IMG/VR virus record: IMGVR_UViG_3300045253_000007
From: an uncultured virus (IMG/VR IMGVR_UViG_3300045253_000007)
Lineage: Duplodnaviria; Heunggongvirae; Uroviricota; Caudoviricetes
DNA: 64,000 bases
Direction: 5' to 3' (one strand)
Shown here: positions 53,037 through 62,959 of the stretch, one piece after another
Numbering within the stretch: position 1 is the stretch's first letter
How the letters are laid out: the number at the start of each line of letters is the position of its first letter
Notes under the pieces: generated by a model
Database searches by the model: none
What the model was told of the DNA's origin: nothing
What the model saw: only the letters and a program-made list of their open reading frames with translations
Made by a program: the position numbers and the translations under genes

Positions 53037-53230
53037 TGAGACGTACTCAGGCTTTTGAATATATAGTAGATGCATATTATGTAGACGAAATGGAGCATGA
53101 AGATTTTGAGGAAATGATGAGGCTTCTCATAGATACTCCACACAAACCTTGGTGTAGGACTAGGTTTGCTGAGAGTATGCCAAATTATGGCTCTGAATGT
53201 ACCTGTGATGAAGGAACTATGCTACAATAG
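53033..53230 (+). CDS. hypothetical protein
   Basis: 65 aa with H...C...CxC. Confidence 0.5.
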   Translation: MMRRTQAFEYIVDAYYVDEMEHEDFEEMMRLLIDTPHKPWCRTRFAESMPNYGSECTCDEGTMLQ

Positions 53231-53234
53231 TAGT

Positions 53235-54215
53235 ATGACTATTGAATTCAAGGCAGGACGCCTGCCCAACGACCCAACCAAGCCTAGGCTAAAGTTTTCT
53301 AGGTTCTCCACTGGCGTGCAGGTACAATTTCCAGCCACAAAGGATTGGTTTTCTAGAGTAACAGATTGGCCGATGTACGGCAATGACCAATACGGCGACT
53401 GCGTATGGGCCAAGATTGGTCACGAGATTGAGCAGACCACTCAGTACGGTCAGGGAGTTACTAAGGAAGTAACTCTAGCAGATGTCCTAAAGGGATATCA
53501 CGATGTTACCGGCTTCGACCCTGTAACTGGTGCCAATGACAACGGTACTGTTATTCAGGATGCTCTCAACTACTGGCGCAAGACTGGCGTCGGTGGTCAC
53601 AAGATTCTAGCATTCGCTGAGGTTGATGTTAAGAACCCAGATGAACTACACGCAGCACTAGACCTATTCGGCTTCCTATCTTTGGGTATTGATTTCCCAG
53701 CAAGCGCCATGGACCAGTTCAATGCTGGTCAGCCGTGGGACGTTGTGTCAGGTTCTCAGATTGAGGGCGGTCACGCTATCAACGCTGGCTTCTATGATAT
53801 AGCAGCAAAGGAATGGAAGATTGTTACTTGGGGCAAGGTCCAGACCATGACTCAGGCATTCTGGGATAAGTACGTTACTGAGGCTTGGGTAGTTGTTTCA
53901 CCTGAATGGGTTGCTGCTAACAAGAACCCGGACGGTGTTGACTTGAACGCTCTAGGTTCAGACTTTGTTCAGATTACAGGTGGTGCAAATCCCTTTCCAA
54001 ACGTTGCACCTACGCCAACGCCTGCGCCAGTTCCTACTCCAACTCCCGTACCGGTTCCAACGCCTACTCCGAGTCCTACGCCAACGCCTACACCAGTTCC
54101 TACCCCGCCGGTAGATGACTTTGTGGCATACGCAAGGCAGTGGTCTAGCGAGCATCACGTATTCTATAAGACATTCCAAGCAAAGTTAAGGGCTTGGCTA
54201 GCAACACAACCGTAA
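53235..54215 (+). CDS. papain-like (C1-type) cysteine peptidase with Pro-Thr linker
   Basis: YGDCV, GGHAI, VTWG; PTPTP repeat; leaderless start. Confidence 0.75.
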   Translation: MTIEFKAGRLPNDPTKPRLKFSRFSTGVQVQFPATKDWFSRVTDWPMYGNDQYGDCVWAKIGHEIEQTTQYGQGVTKEVTLADVLKGYHDVTGFDPVTGANDNGTVIQDALNYWRKTGVGGHKILAFAEVDVKNPDELHAALDLFGFLSLGIDFPASAMDQFNAGQPWDVVSGSQIEGGHAINAGFYDIAAKEWKIVTWGKVQTMTQAFWDKYVTEAWVVVSPEWVAANKNPDGVDLNALGSDFVQITGGANPFPNVAPTPTPAPVPTPTPVPVPTPTPSPTPTPTPVPTPPVDDFVAYARQWSSEHHVFYKTFQAKLRAWLATQP

Positions 54216-54216
54216 C

Positions 54217-54245
54217 TTGACAAGCACAATTGAAGATGATATACT
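54217..54245 (+). promoter_or_regulatory. promoter of tRNA cluster 1
   Basis: TTGACA-17-TATACT. Confidence 0.85.
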
Positions 54246-54275
54246 GGTCTAGTGCCAGTTAATCAATGGCATTAT

Positions 54276-54349
54276 TGCTCATTAGACAAATTGGTAAAGT
54301 CACTTGACTCTGAATCAAGAATTTCTAGGTTCGACTCCTAGATGAGCAG
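54276..54349 (+). tRNA. trnQ: tRNA-Gln(CTG)
   Basis: Cloverleaf; anticodon loop CTCTGAA; T loop TTCGACT. Confidence 0.9.
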
Positions 54350-54354
54350 CGCAC

Positions 54355-54383
54355 TTGACACCGCTGAGAGGGCAGTGTATAGT
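54355..54383 (+). promoter_or_regulatory. promoter directly upstream of the anticodon-less tRNA-like RNA
   Basis: TTGACA-17-TATAGT. Confidence 0.85.
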
Positions 54384-54390
54384 AGAGCAT

Positions 54391-54460
54391 GAACGTGTGG
54401 TGTATTACTGAGGCACACCGGGGAGACCCGGAGGATTGAGTTCGCAACTCAGCACGTCCA
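54391..54460 (+). ncRNA. tRNA-like RNA with a GAGA tetraloop in place of the anticodon loop
   Basis: Acceptor GAACGTG/CACGTCC, D arm GTGT/GCAC, CCGGG-GAGA-CCCGG, T arm TTGAG-TTCGCAA-CTCAG. Confidence 0.75.
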
Positions 54461-54500
54461 CTTAGTCCGTTGTGGTTGGCTAGTCCAACGTGAACGGCTT

Positions 54501-54571
54501 ATCCCATAAGTGTTACGGTAGCATAACGGTCTCCAAAGCCGCTGGACTGGGTTCAATTCCTAGATGGGGTG
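54501..54571 (+). tRNA. trnW: tRNA-Trp(CCA)
   Basis: Cloverleaf; loop CTCCAAA. Confidence 0.88.
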
Positions 54572-54596
54572 CAAGTCGAAGGACTATAAACTTTAT

Positions 54597-54668
54597 CTGT
54601 CTGTGGGAAAGTGGCAATCCGTCAGGTTCGGACCTTGAAGACCGCTGGTTCAAATCCAGCCAGACAGA
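54597..54668 (+). tRNA. trnP: tRNA-Pro(CGG)
   Basis: Cloverleaf; loop TTCGGAC. Confidence 0.85.
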
Positions 54669-54679
54669 CTCCAAAACAA

Positions 54680-54750
54680 ATGGGTGTCGTATAGTGGTAA
54701 GACGTATGCTTTGGGAGCATATGACGAGGGTTCGATTCCCTCCACCCGTA
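54680..54750 (+). tRNA. trnP: tRNA-Pro(TGG)
   Basis: Cloverleaf; loop TTTGGGA. Confidence 0.88.
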
Positions 54751-54786
54751 CGTAACAACTAAAGCCTAGGGGTAACCTTAGGACGA

Positions 54787-54858
54787 CGAGGTATAGTAGA
54801 CTGGTTAGCACAACTCTCTGATAAGGAGTTAAACATGGTTCGATTCCATGTACCTCGA
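54787..54858 (+). tRNA. trnI: tRNA-Ile(GAT)
   Basis: Cloverleaf; loop CTGATAA. Confidence 0.88.
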
Positions 54859-54860
54859 CC

Positions 54861-54921
54861 GGCACTGCAAATCTGGATTGCTTACATTGCGAAAGCATAA
54901 CAACAGTCTGGATTTGGTGCC
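54861..54921 (+). ncRNA. long bulged hairpin with GAAA tetraloop
   Basis: GGCAC-TG-CAAATC-TGGATTG ... TGC-GAAA-GCA ... CAGTCTG-GATTTG-GTGCC. Confidence 0.5.
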
Positions 54922-54954
54922 TATGGGTGTGCGGTGCGAGCCGTATATCCATTT

Positions 54955-55026
54955 GGGAGCGTAGTGAAAAGGTTATCACACTTGCCTGTCGAGCAAGTAG
55001 TCGGGGTTCAAGTCTCCGCGTTCTCG
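54955..55026 (+). tRNA. trnD: tRNA-Asp(GTC) 1
   Basis: Cloverleaf; loop CTGTCGA. Confidence 0.88.
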
Positions 55027-55069
55027 CGTGTAAGGTCTATGTGCGGAGCCACGGCAGCACATAGATAAT

Positions 55070-55146
55070 GGCTCTGTAGCACAGTTGGTTAGCGCGTCTC
55101 CCTGTCACGGAGAAGGTCGCCGGTTCAAGTCCGGTCAGAGTCGCCA
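55070..55146 (+). tRNA. trnD: tRNA-Asp(GTC) 2, CCA encoded
   Basis: Cloverleaf; loop CTGTCAC. Confidence 0.92.
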
Positions 55147-55165
55147 CCTAGTAGATAGGAAATAA

Positions 55166-55450
55166 ATGTCTCAGAAGTTAGAAGACATGTTCGGCAACGC
55201 ATTCGGCGTTGGCGATTTAGTTGTTTTTACAACAAACTCACGCGATTCCGGCCTTTCATTCGGTAAGGTTGATGATATCGTAACAAAGACCGGTACTTAC
55301 CGAAATGGTTTTACATGGACTGAATCCAAGGTACGCATCCGTCACAGTCAGTTGGATGGTACTCTAAAGACGGTTAGGCCAGATTCAGAAATTCTAGTCC
55401 GACCATCTACCATCAATTACAGTAAGTCAAAGTTTCTTACAATCGCTTAG
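55166..55450 (+). CDS. small SH3/KOW-like hypothetical protein
   Basis: DMFGNAFGVGDLVVF. Confidence 0.65.
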   Translation: MSQKLEDMFGNAFGVGDLVVFTTNSRDSGLSFGKVDDIVTKTGTYRNGFTWTESKVRIRHSQLDGTLKTVRPDSEILVRPSTINYSKSKFLTIA

Positions 55451-55458
55451 GAGTATTT

Positions 55459-56463
55459 ATGCATAAGGCACAAAGTCTTATCAATCACGTTGCGCTGGTA
55501 CTAGACGGTTCCAGTTCGATGTCGAAGCACAGGAGCAATCTTATCAAGGTTGCTGACGAGCAGATTAGATATCTTGCTCTGCGTTCAGAGGAACTATCGC
55601 AGGAGACGCGAGTCTCTGTTTACCTCTTTGCTGACCGCGTTGAATGTCTTCTCTTTGACATGGACGTAATGCGTCTTCCATCCATTGCTGATTTGTATAG
55701 AGCAAATGGTATGACGGCGCTCATTGACGCTGTTATCAAGTCTCAGCAGGACTTGACTACGACCAGTCAGTTGTACGGCGACCACGCCTTCCTTACCTTC
55801 GTTCTTACAGACGGTATGGAGAACAGGTCCAATTACTCAATGGTTGAACTTGCAAAAGTGATTTCTGAGGCTGAGGACAACTGGACCATTGGTTATCTAG
55901 TTCCTGACAACTCTGGTGTTGCTTACATGAAGCGCATTGGTGCCAACGGCGGCAGTATAGCCCTGTGGGACGCTACAAGCGCCTCTGGCGTTATTAACGC
56001 TGTCTCCACCATCAGGAGTGCCACTGATAACTTCATGACGGCTAGAGCCTCTGGTGTGCGCGGTACGCGCTCTGTTTTCTCTACCGGCTCAGATGCAGTT
56101 AACAAGAAGACTGTTACACAGAATCTTTCTCCATTGAAGAAGACAGAATACAGCATTCACCCGGTAGGCTCCAAGAGCAGGATTGACGAGTTCGTTCGCG
56201 CACTTGGTTATTCCTACCACGCCGGTATGGGTTACTACCAATTGACAAAGACTGAAACAATCCAGCCTCAGAAAAACGTCATCGTAGTTGACAAGAAGTC
56301 CTTGAAGGCGTATGGTGGCGCATACGCACGACAGTTGATTGGTCTTCCCGACTACTCAACGAGGGTTAAGCCAGATGCCAACCCAGACTACGACATCTTT
56401 GTTCAGTCCACTTCAATCAACCGTAACCTGATGCCAGCAACCAAGTTGCTCATCAAGACATGA
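55459..56463 (+). CDS. von Willebrand factor A (vWA) domain protein
   Basis: MIDAS LDGSSSM, GMTALIDA, LTDGMEN; additional C-terminal domain. Confidence 0.88.
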   Translation: MHKAQSLINHVALVLDGSSSMSKHRSNLIKVADEQIRYLALRSEELSQETRVSVYLFADRVECLLFDMDVMRLPSIADLYRANGMTALIDAVIKSQQDLTTTSQLYGDHAFLTFVLTDGMENRSNYSMVELAKVISEAEDNWTIGYLVPDNSGVAYMKRIGANGGSIALWDATSASGVINAVSTIRSATDNFMTARASGVRGTRSVFSTGSDAVNKKTVTQNLSPLKKTEYSIHPVGSKSRIDEFVRALGYSYHAGMGYYQLTKTETIQPQKNVIVVDKKSLKAYGGAYARQLIGLPDYSTRVKPDANPDYDIFVQSTSINRNLMPATKLLIKT

Positions 56464-56768
56464 CATCTCCCACAGTAGTGTCAGACTACTTCGGAAATTC
56501 AATTAATATTGGTGACAAGGTTCTTTATGTTACTAATAACTCTGGTTGTATGGCATATGGTAAGGTTGTAGATTACTATGAGGCTGGTGTAGGATATCGC
56601 GCACAATACAAAGGTGTCAGGGTAAAGATTCAGCCTCTTGACAATGATGGTTCTCCAACGAAGAAAGTCGTTTGGGATTCGCACCTTGAAAAAAGAGTAA
56701 CTTTAGATAGGCCAGTTTCTACCAAGACGGTAGAATTTGGAGTCGATAAGTTTTTCATAGTAAATTAA
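56460..56768 (+). CDS. small SH3/KOW-like hypothetical protein
   Basis: DYFGNSINIGDKVLY. Confidence 0.65.
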   Translation: MTSPTVVSDYFGNSINIGDKVLYVTNNSGCMAYGKVVDYYEAGVGYRAQYKGVRVKIQPLDNDGSPTKKVVWDSHLEKRVTLDRPVSTKTVEFGVDKFFIVN

Positions 56769-56782
56769 TTTAGGAGGGAGCC

Positions 56783-57325
56783 ATGCGTGAAGTTCTTTTC
56801 AAGACTGTGCATGGCTCCCGACTTTATGGTTTAAGTCATGCAGGTAGTGACGAAGACTTCTACACGGTAGTCACCAAGACGCCGGTAGACGATAGATATA
56901 ACAGACAAACCAAGGCTCGTTATGCAAAGCAAAAGATAACGGGCAGCGAAGACTCATTCGTTGTAGACTTCGGAACTTGGATTGAAATGTGCAAAAGTGG
57001 AGTGCCGCAAGCACTGGAAGCAATGTTTTCTCAAATGCCTATCGAAGATAGGATTGGGGAATTTAGAGCGTCTTTCAGAACCGGACCGGTAGTGATGGAT
57101 AAATACCTTAAAACTATCAAGTCCTTTGCCTTAGCAGAAGACGATACCATAAAGAAGCGTAGGCACGCTCTGAGACTTGCTCTGAACATGAGAGAGTTGG
57201 CTGAAACCGGTAGATTTAATCCAACCCTTTCACAAGAAGATGCAAACTGGATAACATCTATGAGTTCAAAGACTCACGAAGATGTTTATGGTTTGGCCCT
57301 TGTCACGGCTTGGGCACCGCTCTAG
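56783..57325 (+). CDS. pol-beta superfamily nucleotidyltransferase
   Basis: HGSRLYGL...SDED motif; SD AGGAGG. Confidence 0.85.
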   Translation: MREVLFKTVHGSRLYGLSHAGSDEDFYTVVTKTPVDDRYNRQTKARYAKQKITGSEDSFVVDFGTWIEMCKSGVPQALEAMFSQMPIEDRIGEFRASFRTGPVVMDKYLKTIKSFALAEDDTIKKRRHALRLALNMRELAETGRFNPTLSQEDANWITSMSSKTHEDVYGLALVTAWAPL

Positions 57326-57331
57326 TGTAAC

Positions 57332-57361
57332 TTGACACAGACCACCGTGTTGTGCTACACT
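57332..57361 (+). promoter_or_regulatory. promoter of tRNA cluster 2
   Basis: TTGACA-18-TACACT. Confidence 0.75.
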
Positions 57362-57370
57362 AGAGTTCTT

Positions 57371-57442
57371 GGTCCGTTACGTCACCGGTAGACTATTTCC
57401 TTTACACGGAGAGGGCAGTAGGTTCGACTCCTACACGGACTA
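57371..57442 (+). tRNA. trnV: tRNA-Val(TAC)
   Basis: Cloverleaf; loop TTTACAC. Confidence 0.85.
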
Positions 57443-57445
57443 CGC

Positions 57446-57513
57446 ACTCGTATAGCATAATTGGAAAATGCGCCGCCGAAAGCAGAGATAATGGTTCGAT
57501 TCCTAGCGAGCAG
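57446..57513 (+). pseudogene. degenerate tRNA-like sequence with shortened anticodon arm
   Basis: Intact D arm TAGCATAATTGGAAAATGC and GGTTCGATTCC; anticodon arm reduced to CCGCCGAAAGCAG; weak acceptor and T stems. Confidence 0.55.
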
Positions 57514-57516
57514 CAT

Positions 57517-57607
57517 GGAAGTCTAAGTCAAGTTTGGCCTAATGACCACTGTCTTGAAAACAGTTGGGGAAGAAACGCCCGTGTGAGTTCAAGTCTCACG
57601 GCTTCCG
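57517..57607 (+). tRNA. trnS: tRNA-Ser(TGA)
   Basis: Loop CTTGAAA, long variable arm. Confidence 0.88.
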
Positions 57608-57608
57608 C

Positions 57609-57637
57609 TTGACACAGCCGGTAGGCTGTGTTAGTAT
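57609..57637 (+). promoter_or_regulatory. promoter with palindromic spacer
   Basis: TTGACA-17-TAGTAT; ACACAGCC-GGTA-GGCTGTGT. Confidence 0.8.
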
Positions 57638-57642
57638 TAGTT

Positions 57643-57708
57643 ACTGGTGGTAAAGAGTGAAAGTCGGTCAGGTGAGAATCCTGCGCACTAACTCCCTTTA
57701 CCATTGGT
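57643..57708 (+). ncRNA. hairpin RNA capped by a T-loop-like motif
   Basis: TGGTAAAG/CTTTACCA, GAGT/ACTC, CAGG-TGAGAAT-CCTG; begins at the predicted TSS. Confidence 0.5.
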
Positions 57709-57711
57709 CAT

Positions 57712-57783
57712 GTCAGTAGAGCATGTATGGATATGCGCTAGGTTGAAGCCCTTGAAAACAAAGTTCAAGTCTTTGTACTGACA
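57712..57783 (+). tRNA. trnF: tRNA-Phe(GAA)
   Basis: Cloverleaf; loop TTGAAGC; one mismatch in the anticodon stem. Confidence 0.78.
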
Positions 57784-57843
57784 CAGGAACCAGAGAGGAT
57801 ACCCAGTATACAGGTGTTCTATTGTCAAAGAAATCCTCTCAAT

Positions 57844-57914
57844 GCAGCATTGGTATATGGGTTGTGCCCTTGCCTTCCACGCAAGAGAAGTGGGTTCGAA
57901 TCCCGCATGCTGCT
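57844..57914 (+). tRNA. trnG: tRNA-Gly(TCC)
   Basis: Cloverleaf; loop CTTCCAC. Confidence 0.88.
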
Positions 57915-57948
57915 CTGGGATGATGCATCGTCCTAATATTTGATTGTT

Positions 57949-58020
57949 GGTGGGTTCGTCTAGGGGCTCAGGACACCGGACTTTAATCCGGTAACGTTGG
58001 TTCGAATCCAACATCCGGCA
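57949..58020 (+). tRNA. atypical tRNA-Glu-type body with a 6-nt anticodon loop
   Basis: Glu-type D arm TTCGTCTAGGGGCTCAGGACA; CCGGA-CTTTAA-TCCGG. Confidence 0.6.
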
Positions 58021-58031
58021 ATAATCATTAT

Positions 58032-58111
58032 CCGTGTGTAATGGCGGTGGCTACGAACCACTAGTGCATAAAGGAATGAAAATGAGGGTTCGACTCCCTT
58101 CACGCGGTCCA
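58032..58111 (+). tRNA. D-armless tRNA-Arg(ACG)-like RNA with long variable region and encoded CCA
   Basis: CCGTGTG/CACGCGG acceptor, 7-nt linker, GGTGG-CTACGAA-CCACT, GAGGG-TTCGACT-CCCTT, TCCA end. Confidence 0.7.
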
Positions 58112-58154
58112 TCTACGAATTTGACTTTAGTTCGTAGCGTGCTACTATCAACTC

Positions 58155-58538
58155 ATGAAACAGTGTAAGATTGATGGGTGCGATAGCACAGATTTGGCAA
58201 CTAGAAGTTCTATGTGTAAAGAGCATCATAGGGAATATACTAGGGAACACTACAAAGCAAATAAAGTTGCTTATGTAGATAAAGCCAAAAGACACAGAAA
58301 TTCTAATTCTGAACTTGTAAAAGAAGTCAAGTCAATTCCATGTATGGATTGTGGAGTAAAATATCCTTACTATGTAATGGATTTAGACCACAGAGAAGAT
58401 AAGAGTTTTGATATCAGTAGTCATCGCAGTAAGGGCAGATTACAAATCTTAGCAGAGATTGCTAAATGTGATGTAGTTTGTGCAAACTGTCACCGCATTA
58501 GGACATATGACCGTATGAGTGGTATACTGATACCATGA
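58155..58538 (+). CDS. HNH endonuclease within the tRNA region
   Basis: CMDC...MDLDH...CANCHRIRT; leaderless. Confidence 0.85.
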   Translation: MKQCKIDGCDSTDLATRSSMCKEHHREYTREHYKANKVAYVDKAKRHRNSNSELVKEVKSIPCMDCGVKYPYYVMDLDHREDKSFDISSHRSKGRLQILAEIAKCDVVCANCHRIRTYDRMSGILIP

Positions 58539-58693
58539 AAACATTTAGATATAGCGTCAGCATCGTCGTAGAGGTACCAGCCTTTAATGAGATAGATGCT
58601 GAGGAAGCAGTACGTGACGCATTCGGTCTTGGCGAGGTATGCGGCTTAGAAATCATCGAATCAGAGGTCGGAGACTTCACCCTTGCTAACTAA
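58535..58693 (+). CDS. 52-aa acidic protein (not in ORF track)
   Basis: MKTFRYSVSIVVEVPAFNEIDAEE; leaderless ATG after TATACT. Confidence 0.65.
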   Translation: MKTFRYSVSIVVEVPAFNEIDAEEAVRDAFGLGEVCGLEIIESEVGDFTLAN

Positions 58694-58814
58694 TGTCACT
58701 TGGTGCTCATTTTGTAGTAAGCGACCAAGCGACGGTATAGTAACTGTCGAAGACCGCGACGGACAGGTAATAGATTTAGCAGCCTGTACGTCTTGTTACA
58801 GAGCATTACTTTAA
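58683..58814 (+). CDS. 43-aa zinc-ribbon protein (not in ORF track)
   Basis: TTG start after GGAG; WCSFC...CTSCY. Confidence 0.55.
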   Translation: MLTNVTWCSFCSKRPSDGIVTVEDRDGQVIDLAACTSCYRALL

Positions 58815-58887
58815 GGGCTTTTAGTGTTAACGGGAGCACGCTTGTTTTGCAATCAAGTAGAGTCGGGTTCGAATCCCACATTGTCCA
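58815..58887 (+). tRNA. trnA: tRNA-Ala(TGC), mismatched acceptor stem
   Basis: Loop TTTGCAA; G3:U70 pair; two T-T mismatches. Confidence 0.75.
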
Positions 58888-58943
58888 CATGACTAGAAAG
58901 GATACATATTATGACTTATAGGTAAATAACTATAGGAGGTAAT

Positions 58944-59261
58944 ATGTCAGACTGGAAATATCGCGGCATCGTCAGGAGAGACTTCCGTAACGGCGGTGTT
59001 GAGATTGAAGATTTTGAAGACCCGCGCATTCAGAAGCCTACCGGTGGCTACAAGAGTCAGCGTAAGGCTTGCAAGAAATCCAAGGACGGATTGCAGTGCG
59101 AGTTTTCTGAAAAGAAGGTCATTGGAACACGATGGACCATTGACAGTGAGGCTGGAACGAGAGTTCCAAGCCTTCACATAATTGCTGTATGTCGCAGATG
59201 CGGAAAGTACAGTTGGGCTGGTAGATGGAGTTCTTACATCTACACAACCCTACAATTTTAA
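58944..59261 (+). CDS. hypothetical Cys-containing basic protein
   Basis: SD AGGAGG; CRRCGK. Confidence 0.7.
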   Translation: MSDWKYRGIVRRDFRNGGVEIEDFEDPRIQKPTGGYKSQRKACKKSKDGLQCEFSEKKVIGTRWTIDSEAGTRVPSLHIIAVCRRCGKYSWAGRWSSYIYTTLQF

Positions 59262-59295
59262 CTAAGACGGAACTGGCCGGTAAACCCAGAAACAT

Positions 59296-59472
59296 TTGAG
59301 AAATTACTGTAGCAAATGCAAGGCACGTATCAAAGGTCACCTATGGATTGTCGGCAACGACGTTTACTGTGGCGCGTCTTGCCAGAGAAACGGTAAGTCA
59401 CAATTTGAAAAGACTCGCTCTGCTTTGAATAAGATGTTCAAAGAATACAGAGCGCCGACGCCTCAGGCGTAA
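59296..59472 (+). CDS. 58-aa zinc-finger protein (not in ORF track)
   Basis: YCSKC...YCGASC. Confidence 0.55.
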   Translation: MRNYCSKCKARIKGHLWIVGNDVYCGASCQRNGKSQFEKTRSALNKMFKEYRAPTPQA

Positions 59473-59517
59473 TCTAGTGGCCGGTACATATCTCACGACT
59501 GTACCGGCTGCCACCAT

Positions 59518-59590
59518 GCCTTCGTAACTCAGGGGACAGAGTGAGAAGTTTCTACCTTCTTGGCCGCAGGTTCGAATCCTGCCGGGGGCA
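59518..59590 (+). tRNA. trnR: tRNA-Arg(TCT)
   Basis: Cloverleaf; loop TTTCTAC. Confidence 0.9.
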
Positions 59591-59591
59591 C

Positions 59592-59620
59592 TTGCATTGT
59601 CGTTGACAGTGTGGTAGTAT
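59592..59620 (+). promoter_or_regulatory. promoter of the NAD/ligase operon
   Basis: TTGCAT-17-TAGTAT with TG extension. Confidence 0.65.
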
Positions 59621-59694
59621 GGTAGTTGTAACAAGGTGAGTTAACAACAAGCGTTCAGACAATCGGCTTGGCTCATTTATTTGGAAGGAAAACA

Positions 59695-60513
59695 ATGTCT
59701 ATTACATTTTTAGGCACAGATTTTTCTGTGCCTATTTCTATGCAAGAACTGTATTCTGATAATACACCTAGAATCAAGATGGAAAATTTTGAGACGGTGT
59801 GTCAGAAGGCAGATACCGTCGTGGTTAAGCAAGGCTCTCTAGCAGAGTTTGTTAACGCGATGTTCTTGGTTGATTCTATTGCCTTAAAGGGCGGTAAGAT
59901 TAGGAAGTTGATTCTTCCTTTCCTACCGGGTGCCCGACAGGATAGAGTTAATATAGACGGTGATGTTCTATTCACCGCTTCCTCAGTGGCGCAAATGATT
60001 AACTTGCGCGGCTTTGAGCAGGTCATTTCTGTTGACCCCCACTCCCGAGTAATGCCGGGATTCATCTACAACTTTGTCGAGTTTCCTCTCGCCAAGGTTT
60101 ACGAGAAGTTGCCCAAGTCTTATGACGGAGTTATCGCTCCTGACAAGGGTGCTAAGGCTCGTGCCCGAACCGCTGCTCGTGTTCTGAATAAAACAGTCAC
60201 GTACGCAGACAAGGTGCGCGACCCAGCGACCGGTAGTCTATCAGGCTTTGCTGTCAACGTTGATGAAGACAAGCACTATATTGTCATTGATGATATAGCA
60301 GACGGTGGAGGCACGTTCCTTGGACTAGGAGAAAAGATTGCTGAACAAGGTGCCACGGCTGACCTTTACGTCACGCACGCTATCTTCTCAAAGGGAACAG
60401 ACGACTTGAAAAAGATTTACAAGAACATCTACACAACAAATTCAATTAATAATGGACAGCGACCACTGGACGTAATCCGTCTGGACGTTGTGACAGAAAT
60501 GGAGAAATACTAA
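59695..60513 (+). CDS. PRPP-synthetase-like pyrophosphokinase (Adps-like)
   Basis: PFLPGARQDR, DPHS, APDKGA, IDDIADGGGTF, VTH. Confidence 0.88.
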   Translation: MSITFLGTDFSVPISMQELYSDNTPRIKMENFETVCQKADTVVVKQGSLAEFVNAMFLVDSIALKGGKIRKLILPFLPGARQDRVNIDGDVLFTASSVAQMINLRGFEQVISVDPHSRVMPGFIYNFVEFPLAKVYEKLPKSYDGVIAPDKGAKARARTAARVLNKTVTYADKVRDPATGSLSGFAVNVDEDKHYIVIDDIADGGGTFLGLGEKIAEQGATADLYVTHAIFSKGTDDLKKIYKNIYTTNSINNGQRPLDVIRLDVVTEMEKY

Positions 60514-62027
60514 TGTTTACGCTTAACCCGATTTTTCAGACGGACGGATACAAGTTGGACCACCGCCGTCAGTACCCGAAGGGTACACAGTACGTTTACT
60601 CAAACTGGACCGCTCGCGGTAGCCGAGTTCCCGGTATCAACAAGGTCACGTTCTTCGGCCTACAGTATGCGCTAAAGAAGTTGAACGATGAGTTTAAGGC
60701 TAACTTCTTCGCACGCGATGTAGACGAGGTTTGCAATGAGTATCAGGCAATGCTTGATTCTTTTCTAGGGCCGAACGATATCGGCACCGACCACATCAGG
60801 GCTTTGCATACTCTTGGCTACTTGCCTCTAGAGGTTAAGGCACTTCCCGAGGGTACCCGCGTTCCTCTCCGCGTTCCGATGCTTACCATCGAAAACACGC
60901 ACCCGGAGTTCTTCTGGCTTACCAATTACTTTGAGACAATCTTGTCTGCTGAGTTGTGGATGCCGATGACGAGCGCAACCGTTGCTTCTCACATTAGGCA
61001 AGACCTAAACGAGTGGGCATTGAAGACGACCGGTAGCACCGAGGGCGTTGGTTTCAGCGGCCACGATTTCAGCATGCGAGGCATGGCCGGTGCTGAGGCT
61101 GCTATCGCTAGTGCCATGGGTCACCTTGTTGCCTTCACTGGCACCGAGACGGTTCCTGTTCTACAGGCTATTCCGTATTACTACCCCAACACAGGGTTCT
61201 TGGCCGGTACAGTTCCAGCAACAGAGCACAGCGTTATGTGTGCAGGCGGTAAGGAAGACGAGACGGAGACATTCCAGCGTTTGCTAGATTTGTACCCGAC
61301 TCAGATTCTAAGTGTCGTTTCTGACACATGGGATTTCTGGAATGTTCTTACCAACATTCTTCCTAGCCTAAAGGACCAGATTCTTGCTCGCGGTGCAAAC
61401 GGCGGTAAGTTGGTTGTACGTCCCGACAGCGGTGACCCTGCTGACATTATCTGTGGTACTAATGCTCAGGCAACTGATAATAACGGATGGGATTCTGTCG
61501 AAAAGGGTGCTATTCAGGTTCTCTGGGATGAATTCGGCGGTACCATCAACGAGCAGGGCTACAAGGTTCTTAACCCAGCCGTAGGACTCATCTACGGTGA
61601 CGCCATGAACCGTGGACGCATCAACAATATTAACGAGCGTCTTGCAGCCAAGGGCTTCGCCAGCACAAACTGGGTCGCCGGTATTGGTAGTTTCAATTAC
61701 CAATACCAGACTCGTGACACGTTCGGCTTTGCTATGAAGGCAACCAACGTTGTTATCGAAGATGAAGAAAAGGCTATCTTCAAGGACCCGAAGACAGACA
61801 ATGGTTTGAAGAAGTCCCTAAAGGGTCGTATCGGAGTCTTCACGCTAAAGAACGATGAGGACAACAGTCTTGTCAAGGGCAGCAAGGGCGACCTAGTTGC
61901 ATTTGATGAACTCCGTAAGGATAGTAGCGCTTATGAAAATAGTCTGCTAGAGCCTGTGTTTAGGGATGGTGTCTTCATCAAGGAATGGACCTTTGATGAG
62001 GTTCGTGCAAACAGCGGACTCGTTTAA
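60513..62027 (+). CDS. nicotinamide phosphoribosyltransferase-like protein (Namat-like)
   Basis: TDGYKLDH, HDFSMRG, PATEHSVM, SVVSDTWD, VRPDSGDP, KDPKTD. Confidence 0.92.
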   Translation: MFTLNPIFQTDGYKLDHRRQYPKGTQYVYSNWTARGSRVPGINKVTFFGLQYALKKLNDEFKANFFARDVDEVCNEYQAMLDSFLGPNDIGTDHIRALHTLGYLPLEVKALPEGTRVPLRVPMLTIENTHPEFFWLTNYFETILSAELWMPMTSATVASHIRQDLNEWALKTTGSTEGVGFSGHDFSMRGMAGAEAAIASAMGHLVAFTGTETVPVLQAIPYYYPNTGFLAGTVPATEHSVMCAGGKEDETETFQRLLDLYPTQILSVVSDTWDFWNVLTNILPSLKDQILARGANGGKLVVRPDSGDPADIICGTNAQATDNNGWDSVEKGAIQVLWDEFGGTINEQGYKVLNPAVGLIYGDAMNRGRINNINERLAAKGFASTNWVAGIGSFNYQYQTRDTFGFAMKATNVVIEDEEKAIFKDPKTDNGLKKSLKGRIGVFTLKNDEDNSLVKGSKGDLVAFDELRKDSSAYENSLLEPVFRDGVFIKEWTFDEVRANSGLV

Positions 62028-62959
62028 TGTACGAACCCATGTTGGCTCGCTCAGCCGAAGAGTCTGACCTTTCCACAAAGGACTGGACCGGCTGGTCGCT
62101 TGAACCCAAGCACGACGGCATGCGAGCAATCATTGAAATTACCGATGCGGGAGTTGAAATATACTCCCGCACCGGTAAGTCACAAAAGGGTAAATGCCCT
62201 CACCTAGAACACGCACTGTCCTTTCTGCCTCACGGTACCGTGCTAGACGGCGAGATTGCCATGGTAGTTAATAGTATAACTGTCAATGGTCAAGATGTAC
62301 CGGTGGTAGATTTTAATAAGACCATGCGCGTTATGGGCAGTGGTGTAGAAAAGGCAGTATTGCGCCAGCAGGAGTTGGGCGAGGTATCATTCCTTGTATT
62401 CGACATCATGCAATACTGTGGTGAAGATGTTACCACGTATTCTCAGAAGTACCGCAACGAGTTGGTTGACATGCTGGACGCAAACTACATGGTTCACAAC
62501 CCAAAGTACGAGACTGATTTTGCTGAGGTTTATGCAGAACTTATTGCGAATGGTGTCGAGGGCGCTATTCTCAAAAACCTTAACGCAATGCAATACGTCG
62601 CCGGTAGGTCCAAGAATTGGCTAAAGGTCAAGTCTGCTAAGACCTTTGATGTAGTAGTCATGGGGTATACACCCGGTCAAGGTAAGTACGAAGGTAACCT
62701 AGGTGCTATCGAATTTGGTGCTTATCTTCCAAATGGTGTTTTGAAATATGTTGGTCGTTGTTCGGGCATGACCGATGAGGAACGTGGCTACTGGTTTAAG
62801 AAACTGTCTACCGGCGTTCATCCACATGGTGTCATCGAAGTTAAGGCTAATGAGATGGTTGGTTCTGGTGAGTATCGAACGCCTAGGCATCCTCAGTACG
62901 TAACTAAGCGCATAGACAAGAACCCAGAAGACTGTAAAATGGACCAGTTCAAGGCTTGA
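62027..62959 (+). CDS. ATP-dependent DNA ligase
   Basis: EPKHDGMR, LDGE, FDI, EGAILK, WLKVK, RHP. Confidence 0.92.
   Translation: MYEPMLARSAEESDLSTKDWTGWSLEPKHDGMRAIIEITDAGVEIYSRTGKSQKGKCPHLEHALSFLPHGTVLDGEIAMVVNSITVNGQDVPVVDFNKTMRVMGSGVEKAVLRQQELGEVSFLVFDIMQYCGEDVTTYSQKYRNELVDMLDANYMVHNPKYETDFAEVYAELIANGVEGAILKNLNAMQYVAGRSKNWLKVKSAKTFDVVVMGYTPGQGKYEGNLGAIEFGAYLPNGVLKYVGRCSGMTDEERGYWFKKLSTGVHPHGVIEVKANEMVGSGEYRTPRHPQYVTKRIDKNPEDCKMDQFKA

Follow-up and report, generated by a model that had tools for sequence, protein, structure and literature searches.

What is a transfer RNA (tRNA)-shaped sequence that has no anticodon doing at the head of a row of phage tRNA genes? The question is raised by a 64,000-nucleotide (nt) stretch of DNA from an uncultured virus of the Caudoviricetes (IMG/VR record IMGVR_UViG_3300045253_000007), which is referred to here as the window. 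It is phage DNA of 44–49% G+C with almost all of its genes on the + strand, and at positions 54391–54460 of that strand lies a 70-nt element that we call X. A first-pass annotation, made from the letters of the DNA, had described X as a tRNA mimic in which a GNRA tetraloop stands in place of the anticodon, and the sequence that it quoted for these positions is exact. On the evidence of its predicted folds, a homolog, compensatory base changes and a consensus fold, we regard X as a tRNA-shaped RNA gene without an anticodon, and we hold with high confidence that the RNA is real, conserved and non-decoding.

The RNAfold minimum-free-energy structure of X is a four-arm cloverleaf (−23.2 kcal/mol). 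ARAGORN run with relaxed thresholds gives the same cloverleaf under the label 'tRNA-?(ag)', with a 6-nt loop and a two-base 'anticodon', ag; the two programs agree with the full cloverleaf proposed initially. The acceptor stem has 7 base pairs (bp), formed by GAACGTG with CACGTCC (54391–54397 with 54453–54459) and including one A2·C71 mismatch, and is followed by the discriminator base A54460 (A73). Behind U8 and G9, the D arm (54400–54416) consists of a 4-bp stem, GTGT/GCAC, and a 9-nt loop, ATTACTGAG. The substitute for the anticodon arm (54418–54431) reads CCGGG-GAGA-CCCGG, as first reported: five G–C pairs (CCGGG/CCCGG) under the GNRA cap GAGA at 54423–54426. A variable region of 4 nt (AGGA) leads to the T arm (54436–54452), in which a 5-bp stem, TTGAG/CTCAG, carries the 7-nt loop TTCGCAA; U55, C56 and the G53–C61 pair are retained, and position 58 is C instead of A. 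X is unable to pair with a codon because its loop has only 4 nt. The terminal letters CCA, which the annotation had pointed out, are present but do not form a 3′ tail: comparison with the homolog identifies them as C71, C72 and A73 of the acceptor end, and the next bases are CTT. As had been anticipated, standard tools pass over X. Default ARAGORN and Rfam report nothing at 54391–54460, and the tRNA family RF00005 has no match to the window copy either at its gathering threshold or at E values up to 10 (54340–54510, a region in which the whole of Rfam came back empty).

A covariance model built from the window copy of X alone matches a second locus, L011:3002–3070, with 28.2 bits (E = 8.9e-5 in 1.36 Mb). 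L011 is a piece of a 114.8-kb IMG/VR contig (handle G003) that has tblastn matches for 49 of the 65 window open reading frames (ORFs) in conserved order; its terminase is 76% and its NAMPT 75% identical. The tRNA genes of L011 run Gln, X, Trp, Pro(CGG), Pro(TGG) and Ile, which places the homolog in the same Gln-to-Trp slot. A promoter, TTGACA-18-TATAGT (L011:2961–2990), stands directly behind tRNA-Gln, and the X homolog starts 11 bases later. The homolog is 69 nt long and is followed by an encoded CCA (A-CCA). Its 5′ 14 nt match X except at one base, its D stem is identical and its D loop has 6 nt; its seven acceptor pairs are all standard, and one differs from X in both partners; the T arm, TTGGG-CTCAATA-CCCAG, likewise has one pair changed on both sides. 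The arm between them, (G)CTTTC-GCAA-GGGGG(T), has a different stem and a different GNRA loop. RF00005 scores the homolog at 26.7 bits, under its cut-off of 29, aligning the acceptor, D and T arms and skipping the inner arm. Relatives with a normal 7-nt loop had been named as the sign of a recent deletion or an assembly error; the only homolog has a tetraloop and comes from a second assembly, so that two independent assemblies carry the anticodon-less element.

We compared the helices of the two copies pair by pair on a manual alignment, because MAFFT and model-based alignments misplace the divergent arm. Of the 21 cloverleaf pairs of the window copy, 12 are unchanged in the homolog and none is broken. 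A further 4 differ in one partner only, and of these 3 still pair and 1 converts the A·C of the window copy to A–U. In the remaining 5 (acceptor 5:68, T stem 52:62 and three in the capped stem) both partners differ and the pair is preserved. Standard pairs therefore number 20 of 21 in the window copy and 21 of 21 in the homolog, despite differences at 14 of the 42 paired positions. When 14 random substitutions were simulated over 42 paired positions at transition/transversion ratios from 1 to 4, a mean of 11.6–13.5 standard pairs was left and the probability of 21/21 was at most 3.5e-5. Compensatory change is most frequent in the capped arm, where 3 of 5 pairs have changed on both sides and all are still paired; its loops differ between the copies (GAGA and GCAA) and both are GNRA, and the promoter is conserved too. 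The RNAalifold consensus minimum-free-energy structure of the two homologs on a structure-guided alignment is the same four-arm cloverleaf. The first-pass annotation had judged the stem and tetraloop to be selected rather than decayed and had proposed a search for homologs with stem covariation and a retained GNRA loop. The L011 copy, with its GCAA cap and compensatory changes, is such a homolog, and it bears out the judgement: although diverged, it keeps the GNRA-capped stem and the four helices through the pair-keeping changes, five two-sided and three one-sided.

Between the two phages X is 60% identical, ten orthologous tRNAs are 53–91% identical, and the two flanking spacers that can be aligned over their full length are 46–51% identical. 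At the level of sequence, X is as conserved as the neighbouring true tRNAs. Its folding energy is weak evidence, with a z-score of −1.39 and 15 of 200 shuffled sequences folding equally well. We used a cloverleaf descriptor that demands at least 6 of 7 acceptor pairs, a 4-bp D stem, a 4-nt loop closed by 5 bp and, in the T arm, 5 bp below a 7-nt loop with xTC in it. Applied to a collected 1.78 Mb of phage and metagenome DNA, this descriptor found only X, five overlapping loci on the homolog contig and an ambiguous gene resembling tRNA-Gln; the same descriptor with a 7-nt loop found 206 places. Five block-shuffles of 1.80 Mb yielded 1, 0, 0, 0 and 0 matches to the 4-nt-loop descriptor, about 0.2 per 1.8 Mb. 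Taken together, the rarity of the descriptor, the covariance-model match and the syntenic homolog effectively exclude chance. These patterns suggest that X derives from a tRNA and has been kept by selection. An origin from a definable isotype was considered and set aside: no tRNA of the window aligns well to X, and the Gln and Trp genes of relatives are 46–61% identical to it, which is not diagnostic.

X starts 7 nt downstream of a sigma-70-type promoter, TTGACA-17-TATAGT (54355–54383, + strand), which has 11 of 12 consensus matches and whose −35 box lies immediately behind the upstream neighbour, tRNA-Gln(CTG) (54276–54350, + strand). The latter has its own promoter at 54217–54245, and its position in the gene order is conserved in L011, L153, Tomas and Coruscant. 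Promoter-like sites are enriched in this part of the window (19 in 53800–60000, compared with 8.7 ± 2.9 in shuffled sequences), and TTGACA-17-TATAGT is one of them. Downstream on the same strand, default ARAGORN finds tRNAs for Trp, Pro(CGG), Pro(TGG), Ile, Asp and Asp (54501–55146). A scan found no terminator-like site on the + strand between the X promoter and 56053, and for this reason the promoter probably heads an operon of X and these six tRNAs, which are probably co-transcribed with it. The promoter described at first pass is thus where it was said to be, but it is probably shared with the downstream tRNAs and is not X's own. The spacer after X holds an imperfect hairpin, read from the sequence, CCGTT-GTG-GTTGG-CTAGT-CCAAC-GTG-AACGG (54467–54497, + strand), which is not terminator-like because no T run follows it.

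To place X among phages, we scanned several sequence collections. The only homolog found in all of these scans is the contig behind L011, so the known family has two members. Searches of the region with megablast and blastn against 50,697 phage records gave no counterpart of X; they returned either no match or tRNA parts only, none covering X among the 40 places listed. An exact 22-mer had 0 matches in IMG/VR. Patterns for the 5′ half and the 3′ half of X hit 24 and 11 loci in IMG/VR, with one real locus each, the L011 contig in both cases, and a tRNA-Gln pattern with downstream DNA hit 22 loci, of which one has X. A combined pattern, in which 14–19 nt were allowed so as to admit a normal 7-nt loop too, hit 13 loci in 241 million metagenome records, one of them real; the remaining 12 are ordinary tRNAs (His, Trp, Met and Gln-like) or random matches. 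In 185,579 species genomes, one per prokaryote species, the same pattern hit 2 loci, neither of them real. A genome-collection search with the RNA model missed even the known homolog, so its blank is uninformative. Separately, an IMG/VR contig of 175,872 bp (L117) has a match at 1201–1224 on the − strand, in a tRNA-like gene that shares the 5′ half of X, GAACATGTGGTGTA...GCAC. The loop of this gene, TTCCTAA (CCT), looks normal, roughly 5 additional bases separate its T stem from the 3′ strand of the acceptor, and ARAGORN does not report it.

Relatives of the flanking proteins were found at 6 + 4 + 80 + 2 loci, and among these too the L011 contig was the only further source of X. The closest record (G001/L151), with a 100% identical terminase, ends before X. 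The terminase is 57% identical to those of Tomas, Coruscant and others, which puts the phage near Streptomyces phages of the Stanwilliamsviridae; one report gives Streptomyces phages of this group genomes of ~130 kb with 43–48 tRNAs (PMC5764925). The unfiltered covariance model found no X in the syntenic gaps of L007, Tomas, L024 and G002. In G002 (L153; terminase 63% identical, 49 of 65 ORFs matched), the slot of X is occupied by an ORF of 61 amino acids (aa); in Tomas and Coruscant, by an unrelated element of ~125 nt; and in Gilson, by a 51-nt gap alone. L007, a related fragment, has ~2.9 kb and a tRNA-Glu between Gln and Trp, and X is absent. The Coruscant slot also has a second tRNA-Gln, but its identity to X, 48–51%, is no more than that of tRNAs unrelated to X. 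Judged by these gene orders, X is lineage-restricted and dispensable for this phage type, like accessory genes.

Two of these relatives hold features of their own. The 61-aa ORF of G002 (L153:2612–2798) is acidic and has a partial promoter-like TTGACA within it. At L007:5395–5620, a lone T-arm-like sequence, GGGTTCGAATCCC, follows ~150 nt of AT-rich DNA with a direct repeat, GAGTCGAATG...GGTTATCTA; it may represent a relic or else a tRNA interrupted by a large insert.

What might such an RNA do? The reading that we favour, tentatively and at somewhat less than even confidence, is that X is a selected, anticodon-less small RNA gene (a GNRA loop on a 5–6-bp stem) that acts in trans as a putative mimic of the tRNA body; this mode of action is what we infer. 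X would be transcribed from its consensus sigma-70-type promoter as the first gene of the operon that it forms with six tRNAs. Its place in a tRNA operon and its retained 7-bp acceptor stem and discriminator make maturation by tRNA-processing enzymes probable; those of the host would release and finish it, with RNase P acting at the 5′ end where a leader exists, followed by 3′ trimming and CCA addition. The acceptor, T and D parts would then occupy a protein that recognizes tRNAs by those parts, and with its capped arm X would neither read codons nor be open to attack by nucleases of the anticodon loop. The protein bound might be a toxin or defence effector of the host that targets the ends or bodies of tRNAs, or else an enzyme of tRNA repair or processing. 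An RlaP nucleotidyltransferase (PF10127) is encoded in the tRNA cluster, as are PRPP synthetase and NAMPT, and this gene content fits a conflict over tRNAs. The RlaP family is reported to extend damaged RNA 3′ ends by one or two nucleotides and to be required for the restoration of repaired tRNA (PMC12776372, PMC7824862).

The first-pass annotation had suggested a decoy for host anticodon nucleases. PrrC, VapC, PARIS AriB and retron effectors recognize features of the anticodon loop or anticodon stem, and the idea is logically weak because X lacks those features; a decoy, if any, would more plausibly be aimed at proteins that read the acceptor, T and D body. In its furthest form, which we consider unlikely, X would be a counter-defence sponge, made in bulk, matured like a tRNA and absorbing a host effector that reads the tRNA body or 3′ end, and would represent a recurrent, undescribed class of phage RNA. 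Nucleotidyltransferase, pyrophosphokinase and acceptor-stem nuclease toxins are common in actinobacteria, and toxins of these kinds would be possible targets of the sponge; its tetraloop arm would leave the RNA useless to the ribosome and beyond the reach of anticodon nucleases. A link of X to the protein with a weak VWA match at 55459–56463 was also tried and rejected: the protein has no match in PDB or NCBIfam, and its relatives occur without X.

Several observations weigh against a selected RNA acting in trans as a tRNA-body mimic. Three relatives with the same Gln-to-Trp neighbourhood have no X, and it is from the absence of X in syntenic relatives that we take the element to be dispensable for the phage type. 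Nothing ties X to a particular protein, and the genes exclusive to the two X phages (a 349-aa protein at 53166–54215, PRPP synthetase and NAMPT) have relatives in phages that lack X. The family has two members, so that the covariation comes from one sequence pair, and the register of the homolog's arms was chosen by us in a way that favours pairing. Three U·G pairs stand in succession in the capped stem of the homolog. Relaxed ARAGORN reads the homolog as a tRNA-Ala(CGC) with the 7-nt loop TTCGCAA; this reading has two G·G mismatches and a broken D stem, and it reaches −0.4 kcal/mol compared with −19.1 kcal/mol for the tetraloop reading. The alanine identity pair G3·U70 is missing from both copies, which have A3–U70 instead. 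Finally, the elbow is non-canonical. Both copies have U55–C56, there is no clear G18–G19 doublet in either D loop, and the 54–58 pair is U·C in the window and C·A in the homolog; mimicry of the tRNA body may, for this reason, be imperfect.

The main rival, less probable than action in trans but still to be taken seriously, is that X works in cis, as a former tRNA kept for a fold that aids the polycistronic tRNA transcript, either as a cutting point for RNase P and 3′ enzymes or as a stable 5′ cap, with the released RNA inert. Its place as the first gene behind the promoter, with no terminator before the six tRNAs, speaks for this idea, as does an unrelated tRNA-like family (L024:7929–7995 and relatives) in which the acceptor, T and D parts and an ACCA end are retained but the anticodon region varies, so that it has the look of a processing signal. 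A processing signal, however, needs no full-length paired anticodon arm, and in X it is this arm that has been most compensated and has kept its GNRA cap. Moreover, the upstream tRNA-Gln, which has its own promoter, and other tRNA groups lack such a leader, and X begins at approximately the predicted transcription start, which leaves little or no 5′ leader to cut. We consider it improbable that X is instead a slowly decaying tRNA pseudogene, in which an ancestral tRNA lost part of its anticodon loop, both phages inherited the dead gene and the stems persist by chance or short divergence. Phage tRNA arrays do turn over fast, and the cluster has other odd tRNA-like genes (a 6-nt loop at 57948–58021 and weak Ser- and Ala-like calls); the three syntenic relatives without X and the 26.7 bits that the homolog still scores on the Rfam tRNA model point the same way. 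Set against them are the 21/21 and 20/21 standard pairs maintained across 14 differences in 42 positions, at a probability of no more than 3.5e-5 under random substitution, conservation of X like that of working tRNAs and unlike that of the spacers, a promoter that has been kept and two differing loops that both fit GNRA. A gene disabled only recently was rejected on similar grounds: the only relative with a homolog also has the tetraloop, other syntenic slots hold unrelated content, and the helices are not decaying.

Two further explanations have still less in their favour. X might carry an amino acid outside translation, being charged by an anticodon-blind synthetase and serving as donor to a non-ribosomal transferase. 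Some bacterial synthetases (Ala, Ser and Leu) do not require the anticodon, both copies have a 7-bp acceptor and A73, and the homolog encodes CCA. Yet G3·U70, the mark of alanine identity, is absent, as is the long variable arm expected for serine; the window copy has an A·C mismatch at 2:71; and Pfam scans of 61 window ORFs found no Fem-, L/F- or MprF-type transferase and no cyclodipeptide synthase. We rate this use of X as quite improbable. A cloverleaf arising by chance in a spacer, with no RNA gene at all, is the least probable explanation by far: the modest folding z-score and the 4 calls that relaxed ARAGORN also makes within coding DNA of the window would allow for it, but not the ~0.2 descriptor matches per 1.8 Mb of shuffled DNA or a syntenic homolog with compensatory changes and a conserved promoter.

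How X relates to known RNAs bears on the novelty that was first claimed for it. Like a canonical tRNA (RF00005), it has a 7-bp acceptor, U8, A14, a 4-bp D stem, a 4-nt variable region, a 5-bp T stem with G53–C61, a 7-nt T loop with U55–C56 and a discriminator base, and like true phage tRNAs it lies within a tRNA cluster behind the same type of promoter. Unlike them, it has a 4-nt GNRA loop in place of the 7-nt anticodon loop and lacks an anticodon, U33 and R37; both copies fall below the Rfam cut-off, have no clear G18–G19 doublet and have a 54–58 pair other than U–A. The tRNA-like domain of transfer-messenger RNA (tmRNA), or a tag-less mini-tmRNA, was rejected as a match given A3–U70 rather than G3·U70, the full D arm and anticodon stem, and the lack of any ARAGORN tmRNA call in the window. 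Vertebrate mascRNA and menRNA (from MALAT1 and MEN-beta; RF01684) share with X a tRNA shape with a shrunken anticodon arm. Excised by RNase P and RNase Z, mascRNA gains CCA but no amino acid. Where it sits, a long upstream RNA has its 3′ end; X, in contrast, begins at a transcription start or close to one. With such unrelated organisms the likeness is one of analogy and not homology; RF01684 scores the homolog at 15.6 bits (E = 0.73), far under its cut-off of 42.5, and does not match the window copy.

Like X, the bacterial Y RNA YrlA (RF02553), which acts with Ro/Rsr, does not decode and contains a tRNA-like module. YrlA is closed at its acceptor-like stem and opens on the anticodon side towards the Ro-binding stem, so X is its opposite in which end is closed. 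Related Streptomyces phages encode a Ro-like protein, and the Gln-to-Trp slot of Tomas and Coruscant holds another small conserved element. A link of X to YrlA or Ro was nevertheless rejected: in the window, which is part of a genome, there is no RF02553 match and no TROVE domain among 61 ORFs, and tblastn of the Tomas Ro-like protein gave no match in the window, G003 or G002. The slot element itself, common to Streptomyces phage Tomas (L150:3658–3800) and Coruscant (L167:1866–2004), is ~125 nt long and is closed by TGGTCCGA...TCGGACC, a stem that we take to resemble the Ro-binding stem of Y RNAs. Ro-like proteins are encoded by Tomas, Gilson and L007, and Gilson has a weak YrlA match at L168:2651–2764 (30.8 bits, cut-off 69); the Tomas and Coruscant element is a candidate for an unannotated phage Y RNA.

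Among phage RNAs, T4 RNAC and RNAD are longer than X (~120–140 nt) and are not simple cloverleaves. These species 1 and 2 RNAs are small, come from the tRNA region of T4 and have no known role (PMC3014915, PMC9697503). Their likeness to X extends only to position and to the lack of a known role, both being small non-tRNA RNAs encoded in a phage tRNA region. By analogy, RNAC and RNAD may be seen as the nearest precedents of X in situation, and mascRNA as the nearest in architecture. The claim of an undescribed RNA class is accordingly too strong for a family of two members that the small RNAs of the T4 tRNA region precede. Another comparison is with phage tRNAs that evade host nucleases; T5 tRNA-Lys is reportedly effective against PARIS. 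Phage tRNAs with altered anticodon loops escape host tRNA nucleases, according to van den Berg et al. (2023, eLife, PMC10264068). On that description, such tRNAs are, like X, cluster genes with an anticodon loop unlike the host form, and the X phage also carries the tRNA-repair-type RlaP; they still decode, whereas X is without any anticodon. Within the portions of papers returned by a full-text literature search, we found no phage gene of tRNA shape in which a tetraloop stands for the anticodon loop; among those portions, a survey of viral structured RNAs names 'tRNA-like' candidates but gives no such detail (PMC10690425). We place X with the tRNA-derived, non-decoding small RNAs of phage tRNA clusters, to which the present work adds a homolog showing that the capped arm has been maintained.

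Phage tRNA genes are now seen in part as weapons in a conflict over host translation: the host cleaves or modifies tRNAs, and the phage responds with replacement or repair. A selected, folded, non-decoding tRNA shape would add another kind of tool, namely an RNA able to bind a tRNA-recognizing protein without translating. X is a useful example, being small (70 nt), placed behind a strong promoter and provided with a natural comparison in a homolog that has a different stem and GNRA loop and so points to the features that are important. Standard tRNA finders do not report X, and genes of this kind are therefore probably overlooked in phage annotation on a regular basis. Should X serve only as a processing signal, or be a relic that is tolerated, it would still illustrate how phage tRNA arrays generate and keep non-decoding derivatives.

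The rest of the window's tRNA cluster, which starts at 54276, contributes to 13 tRNA genes by default ARAGORN and 14 Rfam matches at curated cut-offs, all of them tRNA. At 57948–58021, ARAGORN reports a 'tRNA-???' with a two-base anticodon (tt), a normal body and the 6-nt loop CTTTAA on CCGGA/TCCGG. The loop resembles that of tRNA-Lys(UUU) minus one T, and the gene is 51–67% identical to Lys tRNAs of relatives; either a genuine tRNA with a short loop or an error in a homopolymer would account for it. A tRNA at 58815–58887 is found by Rfam (37.8 bits), and by ARAGORN only when relaxed, as Ala(tgc) with T·T mismatches. Ser-like ARAGORN calls at 57523–57608 and 58030–58111 likewise come from the relaxed mode, which also gives false calls in coding DNA. 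Interleaved with the tRNA genes are an RlaP-family gene (PF10127), genes for PRPP synthetase and NAMPT (NAD, or nicotinamide adenine dinucleotide, salvage) and a gene for an ATP-dependent ligase (56783–57325, 59668–62027 and 62027–62959), a set that looks like a counter-defence or repair island. In other NAMPT-carrying phages, the tRNA-like family of L024:7929–7995 (also in L028, L023:2244–2378, L049:4227–4361 and L080:7411–7562) lies upstream of an ORF. Its members have the same D arm as X, an acceptor and T stack of only ~10 bp and an encoded ACCA end, and their anticodon region differs from relative to relative: 6 nt looped out on 4 bp in one form, 17 nt without pairing in another, and 23 nt looped out on 5 bp in a third.

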